This document shows, piece after piece, positions 17,551-35,613 of a stretch of DNA of 64,000 nt (positions within the stretch are counted from its first letter, which is position 1; the number at the start of each line of letters is the position of its first letter). Both the position numbers and the translations under genes were made by a program. The notes beneath the pieces were generated by a model that saw only the letters and a program-made list of their open reading frames with translations, did no database searches and was not told where the DNA came from. The DNA comes from Eledone cirrhosa (taxonomy: Eukaryota), in contig CAXHJY010000940.1 in NCBI GenBank assembly GCA_964016885.1, positions 25,264-89,263 on the forward strand, written 5' to 3'.

Positions 17551-17679
17551 TATGAAACGTAGACCCCCATTTCGAACTGTTCATTAAGTATTTTAGTCAC
17601 CAAAGCTAAATACAGATGGTTATGGTTTATATACATGTATATATATATATATAAACGACAGGAATTAATTATATCGTGT

Positions 17680-18207
17680 AATCATAAACTAAGAAAAACA
17701 TTTAAATATTATAAACCTAATTAATAACATTATTTTAGATATTAATATATAATTTAATTTAAATGTTAGTTAACCTATAAATTTAATTTAATTAAAATTC
17801 TACTACAGATGAGATTATAAAATATTGTGTAATCATAAATTGTGAAAAACTTTTAAATATTACTAATATATACTTTGTAAATTAATTTATAGATTAATTT
17901 TAATTTATTTAACCTTTTATTAAAATTCCTTTACAGATAAAATATAACAAAATATCGTGTATTCAATGACAGAGAAATATTTTTTAATATTATAGACCTA
18001 ATTAATGTACAATTTAGAAATATATTTATAATTTGGTTTTAATTTGGTTAACCTAAAAATTTAATTTAATTGGCTTAAAATTAAAATCCTAATACAGATG
18101 GATTGCAGAGTGTCATGTAATCATAGACTGAGATAGGTTTTAGATGTATACCTAGTTAATATATTCTTTGCAATTTTTGAAAAAATATGTATATGTATGT
18201 GTATGTG

Positions 18208-18255
<48 letters not shown>

Positions 18256-18640
18256 TATATGTGTGTGTATATATTAATTTTAATTTTTGTTTACCTATAA
18301 TTATATTCTACTATAGATATAATACAATATCTCTTTTAATTATTATAAACCTAATTAACATATACTATAGAAATTAATATATAATTTTTAATTTAGTTAA
18401 CCTATAATTTATATTCTACTACCGATGTAATACTTTATTTGGTTTTTTTCCCTATTATTAAATTCATTTCCTAATATTGATACCATAACGTTAATAATTT
18501 TAATTTAGTTATACTATAATTAATACTCTACTACTATTTAACTTCAAAATTCCGCTTCAAATATTATAAACCTAAGTAGTATACACCTTAGAAATCAATA
18601 TATTAACTATCTTTAATTTAGTTAACCTATAATTAATAGT
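17680..18640. repeat. AT-rich degenerate tandem repeat with a period of about 120 bp
   Basis: Recurrent TATTATAAACCTAATTAA...TTAATTTAGTTAACCTATAA...CTACTACAGAT. Confidence 0.7.
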
Positions 18641-18907
18641 CTACTTATATTAAAATGCATAATTTTGCCTTCTTTCTTACATTTCCTAATACTGAAACTA
18701 CTATGTAAACACATATTATGATCTAAATGCAGATTAATATTCTATGTTTCTTGAAACCTATATTTACTATAACCCCCCCCCCCTATTATTATTTGTATTT
18801 GTAAGCGTGGATGTATGTATGTATATGTAGATAGGTATGTATGTTTGGGTGTTTATATGTGAGTATAAAAATACATATGTGCGCATGTAAATAAGGGTGT
18901 ATGATTG

Positions 18908-18983
<76 letters not shown>

Positions 18984-19240
18984 AATATATGTATCTATGT
19001 ATTTATGTGGGTATATGTGTGTATATATATGTATGCGCATGTATACGTCTGTGTGTATATGTATATGTGTACGTATATGTGCATGTATATGTGAGTGTGT
19101 GTATATATATATATATGTATATATGTATATATATATATATATATATTTGTAGTTGATATGTGTATGTGTATATGTATATGTGTATGTATATGTATGTATA
19201 TGTATGTATATATATATATATATATATATAAGTGTATATG

Positions 19241-19272
<32 letters not shown>

Positions 19273-19682
19273 CATATTTGTCTGACTGGGTGTATTAATT
19301 AATTAATTTATTTATTTCTTTTATTTTTTTATTTCTTTATTTTTATATATATGTATATATATATGTATGTATATATATATATATATGTATATATATGTGT
19401 GTGTATGTATATGTATGTATGTATGTGTATGTATATGTGTGTGTGTGTATATGTGTGTATATATTTATATGTGTATATATATCTCTATTTATATATGTAT
19501 ATATGTGTATGTATATCCCTTTATTTATGTATGTCTGAGTTGTGTGAACGTGTGGTTGTGTTTGTATGTGTATACGCATACATGGATGTGTATGTATGTG
19601 TATATATGCGTATATGTATGTGTGTATGTGTGTGTGTATATATGTATGTCTATGTATGAGTATATATATGTATGTATGTATA

Positions 19683-19738
<56 letters not shown>

Positions 19739-19802
19739 TATTATATACGTGTGTGTATATATATATATATCTTTGTATATGTGTATGTGTACATGTGTGT
19801 GT

Positions 19803-19843
<41 letters not shown>

Positions 19844-19884
19844 GGTATGTATGTGTATATGTGTATATACATGAGTGTATTTAT

Positions 19885-19930
<46 letters not shown>

Positions 19931-19949
19931 TGTGAATGTATGTATATAT

Positions 19950-19989
<40 letters not shown>

Positions 19990-20139
19990 ATATATGTATA
20001 TGTCTATGTATTTATATGTGTATATGTATGTGTCTCTATATGTATGCGCGTGTGTGGATGTGTATGTGTATATATATGGTGTGTGTATGTATATGTATGT
20101 GTATGTATGTGTTTATGTATATGTGTATGTATATGTATG

Positions 20140-20174
<35 letters not shown>

Positions 20175-20835
20175 GTATGTATATCGATGTATATTTTATA
20201 TTTTACTTGTTTTTATATATATATATATATATATATATTTTCTTAATATTTTTCTTTTTTCTTTTTCTTTTTATTTCTAAATTTATAGATACATTTATAA
20301 ATAGGCAGTTTGCTGACACCAGTAAATACTGACCTCTTCCCCCCCCCCCACCTACTTTCTGTATCTGGATCTAAATATGTGTGGCAGTGTTTATGTGCGC
20401 GCATTAATGTCCATATGCTTATGATAATAGTATATACACATATATGTGTGTGGGAGTGTGTGTGTGTATGTATGTTCGTGGTTGTGTGTATGTTTATGCG
20501 TATATGCGCGTGTGTGTGTGAATGTATGTATATGTGTGAGTATATGAATGTGTATATATTTATTTTTATATTTATATGTTTATATGCGTATATGTATTTT
20601 ATCTGTAGATTATAAATATACAGAGACATTAGCCCTGAATTTTTGTATTTACATACATCTTTTCGGCATGCGTATGCATGTGAACATATATTTTTATGCA
20701 TATCTGTGAACGAAGTTGCTTACATATATACACACACCTAACTGTATAAACTTTTTGTGTTTCCATTGGTCAATTTGAACTCTGTTCCCAAACAGACCTG
20801 TAATTTTGAATTGTTGTTATTATCAATAAATATAT

Positions 20836-20989
20836 TTCATTATTTCTGAAGACGGCATATATATGAGTTGGTATGTATATTTGATTTTGATAGTTTGTAT
20901 AATTTTGTATAATTTTGTACATAGATCTGTTAAATATACATGCTAATTCTAACACATATATATCCCAGAAACGATCGTTAAATAATGAA
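20836..20989 (+). ncRNA. Hammerhead with greatly extended (115 nt) stem II
   Basis: TTCATTATTT-CTGAAGA-[long hairpin 20853-20967]-GAAA-CGATCG-TT-AAATAATGAA: perfect 10-bp stem I and palindromic stem III. Confidence 0.75.
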
Positions 20990-21183
20990 CTTTTTTTGTT
21001 TAATATAAGGAACTGTTTCATTGTTTTATTCATTATTTTTTTAATATTTTATCTTGACTCTGTATTCCGTTTATCTTTCACCGAAAGTGATTTTTCATTG
21101 CATCTTTTCTTTCCATGATATCCGGATTACATTGAGTTCTTCATACGGATTGGACACTACCGTAAACTCTTGGTAGATTTATC

Positions 21184-21246
<63 letters not shown>

Positions 21247-21269
21247 GACATTATGCCGCGCACGTCCAT

Positions 21270-22855
21270 TCCGACAAAACTGGCAATCTATATCAAGTGG
21301 AGCGCAGTACTTACCATCAACTACTACATAATGCTGTAACTAAGGATTACCGTAAAACTAATCGGTGCGTCATCAATGAAATCAACGATGCTGGGTTTAA
21401 AATCCCCTCTGATCTCAACATCCTGGACCGAACCGAACCTCTGGATGCAACAAGGAACATTGTCGTTTTATCCAATTCGACATCAACAATTACTACTCCC
21501 CCATCACTTTACCACTTCTCCTTAGAGCTATCAATTTCGCTAAAACACTCACAGTGGTTAAGGATTTCGAAGTTGATGTCATCCTCAATGCCCGTAAGTC
21601 GGTGATTAATTTCGACGACTCTACTTGGATAAAAAAATCCAATAGTACCCCATTCGACGTGAGTATGGGGGCCAGCGATTCTGCGGAGGTTACTGATCTT
21701 ATCGGCCTTTTCCTTCTTTTCTCTATCAAGGACGAATTCCCCAACGCGGGCGGTGGTTTGTACCGTGATGATGGTATGTTGACCATGACTAAGTGCGGAC
21801 CTCGTGCTTGCGACAGGTTCAGAAAAGAACTCACAACCTTCTTTAAAGGCTTCAACCTCTCTATACAGGTTGAGGCCAATCTCTCGGTCGTTAATTACCT
21901 CGACGTTACCCTCAATTTATCGAATGGCTTGCATTACTCGTATAGAAAGCCGAATGATACGCTTAATTACATAAGTAAGCATTCTAACCATCCTGCCAGC
22001 ATAACCAAGAACCTGGAAAGAAACGTTTCTTTGAGGCTTTCCCGTCTATCTACTAACGAGCATATTTTCAACGACCATTCCATTTATTACAATGAAGCTC
22101 TTGCTCGGAGTGGATTTGTCGATAAGGTAGCATATACAGAGTACGCAAATAGACCTAGAAGAAATAGATCCCGTCGCATTTGTTGGTATAACCCACCATA
22201 TAATATGGAGGTGGCCACACCATTAGCTAAGATCTTTCTATCCCTTATTACGAAGCATTTTCCCCCTACACATAAATATAGTAACATTTTTAATAGAAAT
22301 ACTATTAAAATTCCTTACTCTACGATTCCTAACCTTGCACATAACATCACAGCTTCAAATTTAGCTAAACTACCTAGCCATAGGAATACGTGCAACCATG
22401 TAGTTAGTACTAACTGTAAATGTAGGAATCGGGTTGATTGCCCCCTATCCGGGAAAGGCCTCTCTAGTAACATTGTCTACAAATGTAAGGTTGAAACACC
22501 CACGTCCGGTAGGGCCTACATAGGGTTAACCGCCAATAGATTCAAGCAGCGTCTTTACATGCATACCCATTCTTTTCGTTACCCTCTAAGAAGGAATATG
22601 ACGTGACTTTCAGCTTATATCTGGAGTCTAAAAGACAACCACACCCAATATAAGTTACACTGGGAGATCCTAGCTAGGGCTAGATCGTATAACGGAAATA
22701 AAAGACCATGTGACCTCTGCGCCGCTGAGGCCCTGGAAATACTCTACGCCACAGACCCCATCTTAAACAAAAAATCTGGGGCAATTTCGGCTTGTAAACA
22801 TAAATTGCACAAAACTTTCCTGTATTACAGCCCCACATTATACCCTAACGGCTAG
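21270..22855 (+). pseudogene. PLE RT + GIY-YIG polyprotein remnant
   Basis: An upstream frame (DKTGNLYQVERSTY...TEPLDA) joins the main frame at about 21449 through a frameshifting internal deletion. The main frame reads CKCRNRVDCPLSG...IVYKC...YIGLTANRFKQRLYMH, has an in-frame TGA at 22604-22606, then continues LSAYIWSLK...WEIL...CDLCAAE...ILNKK...ACKH to TAG at 22853-22855. Confidence 0.9.
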
Positions 22856-23033
22856 TACGATCTATACGTGGATATTTTACGTCTTGATGTGGTAGCTAAG
22901 TATATGTTATGTTTATACCATTACTTATTTGCACAGGGAACGTTTCCACGAACCAAAGTATCGTCTTCCTGTCTTCCTCCGGTTGCAACGTTTTTTGAAA
23001 TATCCACTTCTGCGTTTACAGATTGACTTTGTT

Positions 23034-23084
23034 AGTTTCAGAAGATCCCGTTAAGGGTGAAAGCAGCAATTCTTTGCTTAAACT
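23034..23084 (+). ncRNA. Degenerate type-I hammerhead ribozyme in the PLE 3' UTR
   Basis: AGTTT-CAGAAGA-T.CCC gttaa GGG.T-GAAA-GCA..TGC-TT-AAACT. Stems I, II and III pair. The core has one substitution (CAGAAGA for CTGAAGA). Confidence 0.65.
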
Positions 23085-23117
23085 TTAATCTGTTATTTTA
23101 ATAAATATATATATATA

Positions 23118-23330
23118 TATAGTGGACATTATGTCCATTATATATATATATAGTGGACATTATGTCCATTATATATATATATATAGTGGACATTATGTCC
23201 ATTATATATATATATATAGTGGACATTATGTCCATTATATATATATATATAATGGACATAATGTCCACTATATATATATATAATGGACATTATGTCCATT
23301 ATATATATATATAGTAAACATTAATGTACG
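23118..23330. repeat. Array of palindromic TAGTGGACATTATGTCCATTA units separated by (TA)n
   Basis: Six full units and one degenerate unit. The fifth unit is inverted. Confidence 0.95.
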
Positions 23331-33482: not shown

Positions 33483-34493
33483 CATGTGTGAGTGTACATG
33501 TGTGTGTGAACGTGTGTATGAGCAAATGTTATATATAAATATTGATTCTAATTTAGGCAGATGGCCAGAAGCTATTTCTTGGGAGGAAGGAAAAGGCAAA
33601 TTAAATGCTTAATTAAATCAACTCCAGTACTTGACTGCTACTTTATTTTATCGACCTCGGAAAGACGAAAAGCAAAGTTCCCTCAGTGGGATTTGAACCC
33701 AGAATATAAAGAGAGAAAGAACAAACACTCCATTGGCATTTTATCCGACGCTTTACCAATTCTGCCAATACAACACCCTTATCTTATATATGAATATTTC
33801 TAACTTAGGTACAAGGCCAGCAAATCTTTTTTTTTATGAATGAAAGATTATTTTAGGGATGAGAATAGGTCATATGCTGACCTCAGAAATAATTATATTT
33901 GTTCATTGAATAAAACCAACAAAGATTTAATATAGTAGGTTTGTTTGGGAACAGGTTTTGAATTAACCAATAGAAAGGTAATAATTGGCCAAATGGTAAA
34001 ATAGTAGTAATTGAAAATTATTTTGGGGTAGCAGAAGGCAGATTTCAGTTTTGAATGGAAGGAGTATGAAGAATGAAAAGTTTATTTTAAAATAGGTTAG
34101 GTCAGTAAAAGGTAACACGAAAAGTTGCTGTTATAAAGGAATAATGCCAATGTAAATATCTAAGGAGACTAAAATTTTACGATAAAAGTGTTAGTGAAAA
34201 AAATATATATGGAATTTACATCTATGAAAAGAATATAAATTAATTTAATTGATGGGTATATTTATATTGATAAAATTATATTAATGCATATAGATATGAT
34301 AAATAATCTTTCATTCATAATATTCTTTCCATCCTAAACTGAAATCTACCTTCCTCTACCCATAAATTAAGGTTCTTTTACTACTATATTACTATCTTGA
34401 CCTTCACTATCTTTCTATTGGTCATTTCAAAACCTGTTCCCAAACAGACCTATTGTATTAAATCTTTGTTGGTTTTTTCAATAAACAAATATA

Positions 34494-34627
34494 ATTATTT
34501 CTGAAGACAGCATATATATGTGTAGGTATGTATACTCCCTCTGATAGTTTGTAAAAATTTTACATAGATCTATAGGATATGCATACCAACACTAACATAT
34601 ATATCCTAGAAACGATCGTAAAATGGT
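34494..34627 (+). ncRNA. Hammerhead with extended (101 nt) stem II, diverged homolog of 20836
   Basis: ATTATTT-CTGAAGA-[hairpin 34508-34608]-GAAA-CGATCG-TA-AAATGGT. Confidence 0.72.
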
Positions 34628-35156
34628 GAATTTTTTAATATAAGGAACTGTTTCTTTGTTTATTCATTATTTTATTAATTTATAATTATATATATATAAT
34701 TATATATATAATTATATATATAATTATATATATATAATTATATATATATAATTATATATATATAATTATATATATATAATTATATATATAATTATATATA
34801 TATATAATTATATATATAATTATATATATAATTACATATATAATTATATATATAAATATATATAATTACATATATAATTATATATATATATAATTATATA
34901 TATATAATTATATATATAATTATATATATATAATTATATATATATAATTATATATATATAATTATATATATAATTATATATATATAATTATATATATATA
35001 TAATTATATATATATATAATTATATATATATATAATTATATATATATAATTATATATATAATTATATATATATATATATATAATTATATATACATATATT
35101 ATTATATATATAATTATATATATAATTATATATACATATATAATTATATATATATA

Positions 35157-35613
35157 ATACAGCAGCACAGACTCCACTACAGCAATGAAGAGGCGGATTT
35201 TCAGGTCTCTACGAAGGTCCGACTTCCACACCGATCTCAAGCTGTGGCACGCCGCCCAGGCCTTGCTCTTCCTCTCAACCACATCATCTTCCGTATTCCC
35301 AATCTTTGCTCCCAAATACAGGAAGTCGTCAACCAATTCCAGCGGCTTCCCGCCTACATTAGTGATCCCAACTGAGGTTGGCTGGACATGCTCACCGACA
35401 TCCAGAGTTGACATTGCACTCAGTGCTCCTTTGGGAGCCCCTACATGGACACACTAGAAGAGGAAGACCAAGGTTAACATATGTTGATGCCCTAAGGACA
35501 GACACTGGTCTGTTGGAGATGCAGGATATGGCAGCGATAATGAGGGACAGAGACCGCTGGAGAGAACTCGTTCATGGATCTCGGGAATTTTACCCGCCTT
35601 AGATAGATAGATA
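35157..35613 (+). mobile_element. RTE-clade LINE of the same young family, 5'-truncated with inversion
   Basis: 35157-35369 is the reverse complement of 53386-53597. 35371-35602 encodes the C-terminus LAGHAHRHPE...RGRPRLTYVD...DRDRW, followed by a (TAGA)n tail. Confidence 0.92.

Follow-up and report, generated by a model that had tools for sequence, protein, structure and literature searches.

A hammerhead motif with an unusually long stem II associated with Hydra-clade Penelope-like retrotransposons in Eledone cirrhosa

The window analysed here, a 64,000-nt stretch of the Eledone cirrhosa genome (contig CAXHJY010000940.1, positions 25,264 to 89,263), carries two diverged copies of a hammerhead ribozyme motif with a long stem II. 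The original prediction had described both copies and placed their core boxes more than 100 nt apart, and this is confirmed, the inserts measuring 115 and 101 nt. The features discussed below are as follows (the slash in motifs marks a junction).

17653..21187, + strand: copy 1 element, a 5'-truncated Penelope-like element (PLE) assigned to the Hydra clade, (TA)n-flanked, 92–93% to other copies from ~17648
17653..17724, + strand: copy 1, last 23 codons and stop of the reverse transcriptase (RT)/GIY-YIG ORF, the translation matching the C-terminus of open ORFs
20825..20830, + strand: AATAAA, conserved in rod families, 6–9 nt before TCATT
20836..20845, + strand: copy 1 hammerhead stem I 5' strand, 10 bp with 20980..20989
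20839, + strand: A of TC/ATTATTT, 5' junction hot spot, initiator-like
20846..20852, + strand: copy 1 core box C3–A9 (CTGAAGA)
20853..20967, + strand: copy 1 stem II, a 115-nt rod according to folding and pairing counts
20871..20876, + strand: GTATGT, a predicted 5' splice donor that lies base-paired within helix C
20968..20979, + strand: copy 1 second core box (GAAA), the palindrome of stem III (ACGATCGT) and H17, reading GAAACGATCGT-T
20980..20989, + strand: copy 1 stem I 3' strand
21029..21038, + strand: decoy, repeating the 5' strand of stem I and predicted to sequester its 3' strand
21052..21187, + strand: optional tail between the short (~21052) and long (~21187) 3' ends
33834..34306, − strand: copy 2, 5' part of its 3' UTR in inverted orientation
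34301..34682, + strand: copy 2, forward segment, pseudo-LTR (pLTR) and short 3' end into (TA)n
34494..34627, + strand: copy 2 hammerhead, stem I 34494–34500/34621–34627, 7 bp
34501..34507, + strand: copy 2 CTGAAGA core
34508..34608, + strand: copy 2 stem II, 101 nt, donor-like GTATGT at 34526
34609..34620, + strand: copy 2 second box GAAACGATCGTA, that is, GAAACGATCGT-A

Both copies, which are 76% alike across 289 nt, possess the core nucleotides C3-U4-G5-A6-N7-G8-A9 and G12-A13-A14 as well as the A15.1-U16.1 pair, and GAAACGATCGT occurs exactly twice in the window. The NUH triplet is GUU in copy 1, with cleavage predicted after 20979, and GUA in copy 2. Stem III consists of the palindrome ACGATCGT and nothing longer. 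From its base upwards, stem II of copy 1 comprises a C.A mismatch, 2 bp, a C.C mismatch, helix B, helix C and a conserved apical internal loop; C.A, and not G10.1-C11.1 or any Watson–Crick pair, occupies the base in 186 of 190 rod copies, and part of the copies of the branched family GB have G-C there. Both inserts fold as rods, with z-scores of −5.3 in copy 1 (computed one base off, on 20854–20968) and −4.8 in copy 2 and 0/200 shuffles equally stable in either case. Stem I of copy 2 includes two G-U pairs, one of them private to that copy. The stem I–stem II tertiary contact of fast natural hammerheads is not recognisable in these copies; it has been reported missing from metazoan PLE hammerheads. 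An Rfam scan of the window yielded no hammerhead family among the matches listed (150 of 299), only AT-repeat microRNA noise, in line with standard models overlooking this type I layout with its very long stem II, which the original prediction had expected length-limited searches to miss; the repeat-finder output for the window was dominated by microsatellites.

The motif is abundant in this 3.0-Gb, (TA)n-rich genome. Searching for the two boxes 90–120 nt apart returned 10,948 exact pattern matches, against none for a reversed-pattern control, and the two window copies each stand at the head of a young family of their own (795 candidates with 40 scored, at 99–100%; 1,591 with 40 scored, at 97–100%). 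With a looser first box, 128 matches have inserts of 6–36 nt and 372 of 37–90 nt, many of these being recognisable as deletion products. A further 936 and 572 matches, partly overlapping with the 10,948, come from variant patterns, which also uncover further families with 94–102-nt inserts, namely the rods F4, F5 and F6, the branched GB and the older GC, so that the insert ranges here from 94 to 116 nt, rod-shaped or branched. Consensus folding of six old GC copies gives no hammerhead fold, and single GC copies fold as rods. In two F5 loci (L186 and L182), stem I lies ~9 unpaired bases away from the core, and pairing is predicted for the first core box; F5 is possibly a degenerate ribozyme that would retain hairpin, donor and acceptor.

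Almost certainly, as judged from sequence motifs, the hammerhead belongs to the pLTR of a Hydra-clade PLE. Hydra-type ORF sequence lies upstream on the same strand at 6/10 long F1 loci and 10/10 F2/F6 loci (all picked by length or an earlier hit), three of which have 705–778 open codons, and the F4 and F5 hammerheads are likewise found downstream of Hydra-type endonuclease ends; for GB and GC, no ORF was linked in the flanks examined. Among 30 loci found via the ORF start, 14 have the same hammerhead also upstream of the ORF, and its presence on both sides indicates that the unit is pLTR-ORF-pLTR. Partial tandems of this unit, inverted 5' copies, the optional tail and (TA)n targets were all found. 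Read by eye against section 11 of PMC8557442, the 778-codon ORF of locus L205 contains an RT plus a GIY-YIG domain at the C-terminal end, RWK-like, DKT and CxCX5C motifs, and CxxC and CxH near the C-terminus; Pfam gave no RT or GIY-YIG match to the ORF at E 1. Hydra-clade PLEs share the (TA)n targets, the RWR/DKT/CxCX5C motifs and the C-terminal GIY-YIG, and their hammerheads are likewise of type I, near the element 3' end, with a short, often palindromic stem III, as set out in the available sections of Craig et al. 2021 (PMC8557442). The same source gives typical Hydra-clade lengths below 3 kb, whereas F1 reaches ~6 kb with a 3.3-kb 3' UTR. Copy 1 is composed of the last 23 codons, ~3.1 kb of simple-repeat-rich 3' UTR, the hammerhead pLTR and the long tail; copy 2 is truncated too, and its inverted segment includes a partial pLTR duplicate ending after CTGA.

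The F1 3' UTR (window 17725–20800; L203, L205, L208) is largely conserved (TA/TG)n-like sequence, which implies that much apparent genomic microsatellite is mobile-element sequence; the 3' UTRs of related families measure 0.55–1.2 kb. After its RT core, the L205 ORF carries an asparagine/threonine/lysine-rich insert of ~110 residues, recalling the N-rich inserts described for rotifer Penelope ORFs (PMC3846280, available sections).

The neighbouring ORF at 21243–22850 was considered as the owner of the hammerhead and rejected, as it represents a separate Hydra-type family in (TA)n with a protein only ~42–45% alike. A non-autonomous retrozyme was rejected because ORFs are found upstream of the hammerhead; pairs of neighbouring copies, moreover, are arranged head-to-head. 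Also rejected was a SECIS element, the core consensus of which is a tandem G.A quartet, because the ORF is open for 778 codons without a stop and the apical loop has no such quartet. The neighbour, a second 5'-truncated Hydra-type PLE inserted in (TA)n after copy 1 (21243–23095, + strand), contains at 23039 a short hammerhead-like motif with CAGAAGA replacing CTGAAGA and a U.U stem II base; this core also occurs at loci L035 and L107 and may thus be family-wide. The repeated and inverted 24-nt units at 23100–23310 are identical to the neighbour's 5' junction, with (TA)n in between, and look like slippage or fold-back products of a single insertion. Loci L107, L111 and L170 represent a family, often in inverted pairs, with the same stem III palindrome lengthened to CTGACGATCGTCAG, a 20-nt stem II and a possibly variant first box. 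Elsewhere in the window, 53190–53900 (+), 35007–35453 (−) and 41772–42200 (+) hold two fragments of an unrelated LINE-type reverse transcriptase and one of another GIY-YIG element.

The pairing of stem II is, in our assessment, very probably under selection. With positions counted from both core boxes, 80% of positions in 190 rod copies are paired in register versus 13–17% at an offset of one; pairing at an offset of two is high (55–68%) because of AT alternation. Pair types present in at least five copies are canonical in 13/14 cases, compared with 4/32 for single-copy types (p 3e-7; types of 2–4 copies, n=23 with 8 canonical, were set apart). Across 12 subfamily representatives, 96.7% of cells are paired and five pairs show two-sided change, with 2/500 shuffles as high, the pair and two-sided-change counts being inflated by the relatedness of copies. 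F4 was excluded from this 12-row count, since MAFFT misaligned it, and counted from the core-box anchors instead; in this family the A-U helix B is replaced by GGGUAGU/ACUACCC at the same place. Stem I has one two-sided change among the 12, and GB, which folds differently as a branched structure, exhibits covariation at 7 pairs among 8 copies. Compensatory change in a long stem II, as originally proposed, is thus borne out; in the arms quoted at the time pairing is indeed kept, but the differences there are mostly one-sided U-A/U-G swaps, and the two-sided changes fall mainly nearer the core. Of the variants shared between copies in helix C, almost all fall on the 3' strand, with GTATGT on the 5' strand remaining fixed.

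Among the first 100 matches, taken from the largest contig, 49 retain upstream pLTR sequence and 43 end 3–8 nt before C3, 23 of the 100 exactly at −7, the A of TC/ATTATTT, with both arms of head-to-head pairs included in the counts. Genome-wide, the base at −8 is foreign in 3,105 matches, some of which are point changes, versus intact in 5,567. The same truncation point recurs in the unrelated GC family (3/5 rows), and the same fold-back junction in contigs of three other sequencing runs; in 24 GB rows no copy is truncated at the core, and the family lacks AATAAA. An extra G at −8, as a copied cap would leave, shows no clear enrichment (22 among the first 100). We consider the −7 hot spot a likely RNA 5' end, that is, a transcription start. 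Of the ORF-bearing non-reference copies that reach the hammerhead, 0/13 stop at −7 (p 0.002 vs 43/100), so that long copies must derive from RNA begun further upstream, and a simple one-transcript model fails. The 3' ends fall into two classes, 49/100 at ~50–79 nt and 33/100 at ~190–219 nt after the core, and tails of this pattern have been accounted for by internal priming (PMC11167929). In six of the 100 (L080, L089, L090, L251, L252, L260), the −7 start is joined to the 3' end of one other repeat, common to all six, via a shared ATTATT, reflecting either template jumping to the RNA of that repeat or microhomology at a favoured target.

The region between the likely RNA start and the ORF has the appearance of an intron-bearing leader. 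The 410–501 nt up to the start codon contain 7–15 ATGs, and a GT donor-like and a YAG acceptor-like sequence are conserved at fixed places before the ORF. The donor-like GTATGT lies at +33, in the context AG/GT in F2, F3 and F6, TG/GT in F1 and GAC/GT (weak) in F4, with GTAAAT in F5; the acceptor-like TAGTTGAGCT precedes the ATG in 15/15 listed junctions from four subfamilies, its TAG 35 nt before the ATG, and in the three cases examined the 60 nt before it are free of any other AG. The implied introns are 434, 403 and 351 nt long and leave one upstream ATG. No spliced junction was found among 310 loci, which fits intron retention and is no proof of splicing. Hairpins covering a donor hinder splicing, and completion of this hairpin is predicted to lift the cost of opening the donor from 5–6 to 15–19 kcal/mol in F1, F2 and F6, with a smaller effect in F4 and F5 (8.7 kcal/mol in F5). 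In most GB copies the donor is not clear, and an equally long covarying stem II without donor signals implies that donor burial is not the sole reason for the length.

From what is observed (the element context, the copy number, the kept pairing, the −7 hot spot, the two 3' ends and the donor- and acceptor-like sequences), the best explanation in our view, to which we give somewhat less than an even chance, is that the long stem II is a selected hairpin burying a predicted 5'-UTR donor, such that the RNA would be either spliced to mRNA or kept unspliced and uncleaved as template. The templates of the genomic copies had retained the intron and an uncut ribozyme. A less probable alternative, which we nevertheless take seriously, is that stem II was selected as a binding or packaging platform for the RT/endonuclease, or as a chaperone site licensing protein-assisted cleavage, the donor lying inside it only because both share a short 5' leader. 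The apical internal loop (GAU-A-N-UU-UGUA/UACA-UAG-AUC) hardly varies among 189 rod copies and is also present in F4 and F5, and the unrelated GB and GC maintain the insert length (94–102 nt) with other folds; moreover, cleavage by the hammerhead of PAc, a Poseidon element of Anolis, requires the element's protein (Frangieh et al. 2024, PMC11167929). However, the RNA region required in PAc is situated downstream of the pLTR, outside it (PMC11167929), and a platform leaves the fixed 5' strand of helix C facing a drifting partner unexplained.

For the hot spot as an RNA start, the main rival, albeit an improbable one, is a polyadenylation cut after AATAAA, with the downstream fragment copied as short elements and surviving because its stable hairpin slows 5'-to-3' decay. 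The hexamer at 20825..20830 is possibly a polyadenylation signal: it lies 6–9 nt before TCATT in F1–F6 and GC, there is a CA dinucleotide at the hot spot, and long copies read through the site freely. But the hexamer is nearer to the cut than the usual rule would have it, and a cut after CA predicts starts at −6, whereas 26 are seen at −7/−8 versus 5 at −6 (p 7e-7, assuming a 40% chance match).

The predicted fold of the ribozyme bears on whether it is an efficient self-cleaver, processing tandem transcripts or yielding circular RNA, with stem II stabilising a core that lacks G10.1-C11.1, a reading that we regard as slightly more doubtful still. All core nucleotides are kept in five ORF-linked families with endonuclease DNA only 67–92% alike, a conservation in part fixed by the search patterns used, and the starts of 67 copies (11 being stem-I fold-backs) coincide with or lie close to the predicted cut, against 7 for a control site placed 45 nt downstream, which spans fewer subfamilies. 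These 67 are dwarfed, however, by the ~3,100 junctions upstream of an uncut core, and a 3' end at the cut is seen in 0/100 copies, so that copies begun at a cleavage product are at most a minor route. The original prediction had stem I closing with 10 bp in copy 1 and with 7 bp including G-U pairs in copy 2; these 7–10 bp are possible, yet stem I is absent from the predicted ensemble with the tail present, and, rather than being juxtaposed, both core boxes are predicted to be locked in a rival helix in which UUUCUG pairs with YAGAAA; this goes part of the way towards what the original prediction had named as its own refutation. The active fold is predicted to lie 8–13 kcal/mol above the locked one in 8 rod representatives. 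The decoy downstream beats shuffled tails in 5/6 rod representatives (at most 7/300), is weak in F5 and F6, and fails to reach significance in GB and in one GC copy out of two. As for stem III (ACGAUCGU), the predicted self-duplex amounts to −10 kcal/mol and the pairing probability in the monomer to at most 0.02; a dimer-type hammerhead with a short palindromic stem III is known (PMC4209133, available sections). Finally, the proposal that the hairpin is a double-stranded ADAR or Dicer substrate is very improbable. In its favour, copy 1 is an A-U-rich rod with up to 21 unbroken pairs; against it, the longest unbroken helix of copy 2 has 10 bp, and single-copy changes at paired positions show no A>G excess (7/4710 A>G vs 7/5293 T>C, or 1.49 vs 1.32 per 1000), a comparison that covers edits reaching new DNA copies only.

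Under donor burial by a selected stem II, the following sequence of events can be envisaged. Transcription would begin at the A of TC/ATT, giving an exon 1 of ~32 nt, and a 350–430-nt intron would take out what remains of the ribozyme, together with the tail and every upstream ATG but one. Once the 3' arm has been transcribed, the donor would be shut, its opening predicted to cost 15–19 rather than 5–6 kcal/mol, and the lock helix and downstream decoy would keep the ribozyme inactive, the palindromic stem III allowing cleavage only as a dimer, probably aided by the element's protein. Reverse transcription would likely prime in the tail and, on promoter-started RNA, run off at the 5' end, resulting in thousands of short and head-to-head copies. 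A pLTR transcription start and a 5'-UTR intron have precedents in Penelope and Chlamys-3 (PMC8557442, PMC2377424; available sections), and protein-assisted cleavage and an uncut template in PAc (PMC11167929). A bolder version, which we put forward tentatively and as a whole consider rather unlikely, is that stem II acts as an RNA switch, hiding the donor and, with lock and decoy, silencing the ribozyme, so that the RNA becomes either a spliced mRNA devoid of ribozyme and priming tail or a template; stem III would pair two templates, and the copies stopping at one base would be run-off cDNAs from the capped end. Overall, the original interpretation is supported in part; what it did not contain is that the motif is almost certainly the pLTR hammerhead of a Hydra-clade PLE, overlapping a likely RNA start and a likely 5'-UTR intron.

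Ribozyme and element are thus of a known kind, and what sets them apart is the unusually long selected stem II. In the available part of File S2 of PMC8557442, Hydra stems II have 3–7 bp and 3–10-nt loops, the 26 Hydra-clade hammerhead rows have inserts of ~11–26 nt and the longest in the whole table is ~50 nt, compared with the 94–116-nt inserts here; a mismatch at the stem II base is common to both, often U.U in that table and C.A once, in PLE-X1_cBra, so that PLE hammerheads do not strictly require G10.1-C11.1. As in Drosophila virilis Penelope and Chlamys-3_cRei, there is a likely pLTR start and a likely 5'-UTR intron retained in genomic copies (PMC2377424, PMC8557442, PMC4209133; available sections). 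In these sources, however, the Penelope intron ends abutting the hammerhead, at helix I, whereas the intron predicted here has its start within stem II, so that most of the ribozyme would be lost with it; and most Chlamys elements, as far as the available text of PMC8557442 goes, differ in having no canonical hammerhead. PAc is similar in its two internal reverse-transcription starts giving a tail, in the uncleaved RNA as the dominant template and in that its coding unit has a hammerhead close to the 5' end. In PAc, however, the ORF begins within a short stem II and the tail measures 30–40 nt (PMC11167929), compared with an ORF beginning ~500 nt downstream of the likely RNA start and a ~135-nt tail here. 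The discontinuous Clec2 hammerhead (PMC6155905, available sections) likewise joins core boxes across a long insert and was overlooked by length-limited searches; it is, however, of type III, with a 150–1500-nt insert in helix I, in the 3' UTR of a single-copy host gene, and not a type I motif with the insert in stem II of a mobile element. Non-LTR retrozymes (bioRxiv 10.64898/2026.07.22.740005, available sections) are also type I, derived from PLE pseudo-LTRs and of high copy number, but they are non-coding head-to-tail tandems, in contrast to coding elements with short copies solo or head-to-head. In the literature searched, mostly open-access papers, we found no description of a comparable stem II. 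Luense et al. 2017 are said to have studied dimer-cleaving PLE hammerhead variants, and those data may bear on the novelty of the long stem II.

Our results indicate that stem II can reach at least 100 nt, as a rod or branched, in several families of one genome, which implies that hammerhead counts obtained with short-loop descriptors are too low. The more than 10,000 young genomic copies constitute a record of the start and end points of reverse transcription. Both the role of PLE hammerheads and the reason for keeping the intron are stated as open questions in the available sections of PMC8557442. With the ribozyme, the likely start, the likely donor and the priming tail all within 350 nt, the elements described here offer a direct test of that role and of intron retention, and the RNA switch, if true, would resolve the long-standing question of why Penelope-like elements retain introns.
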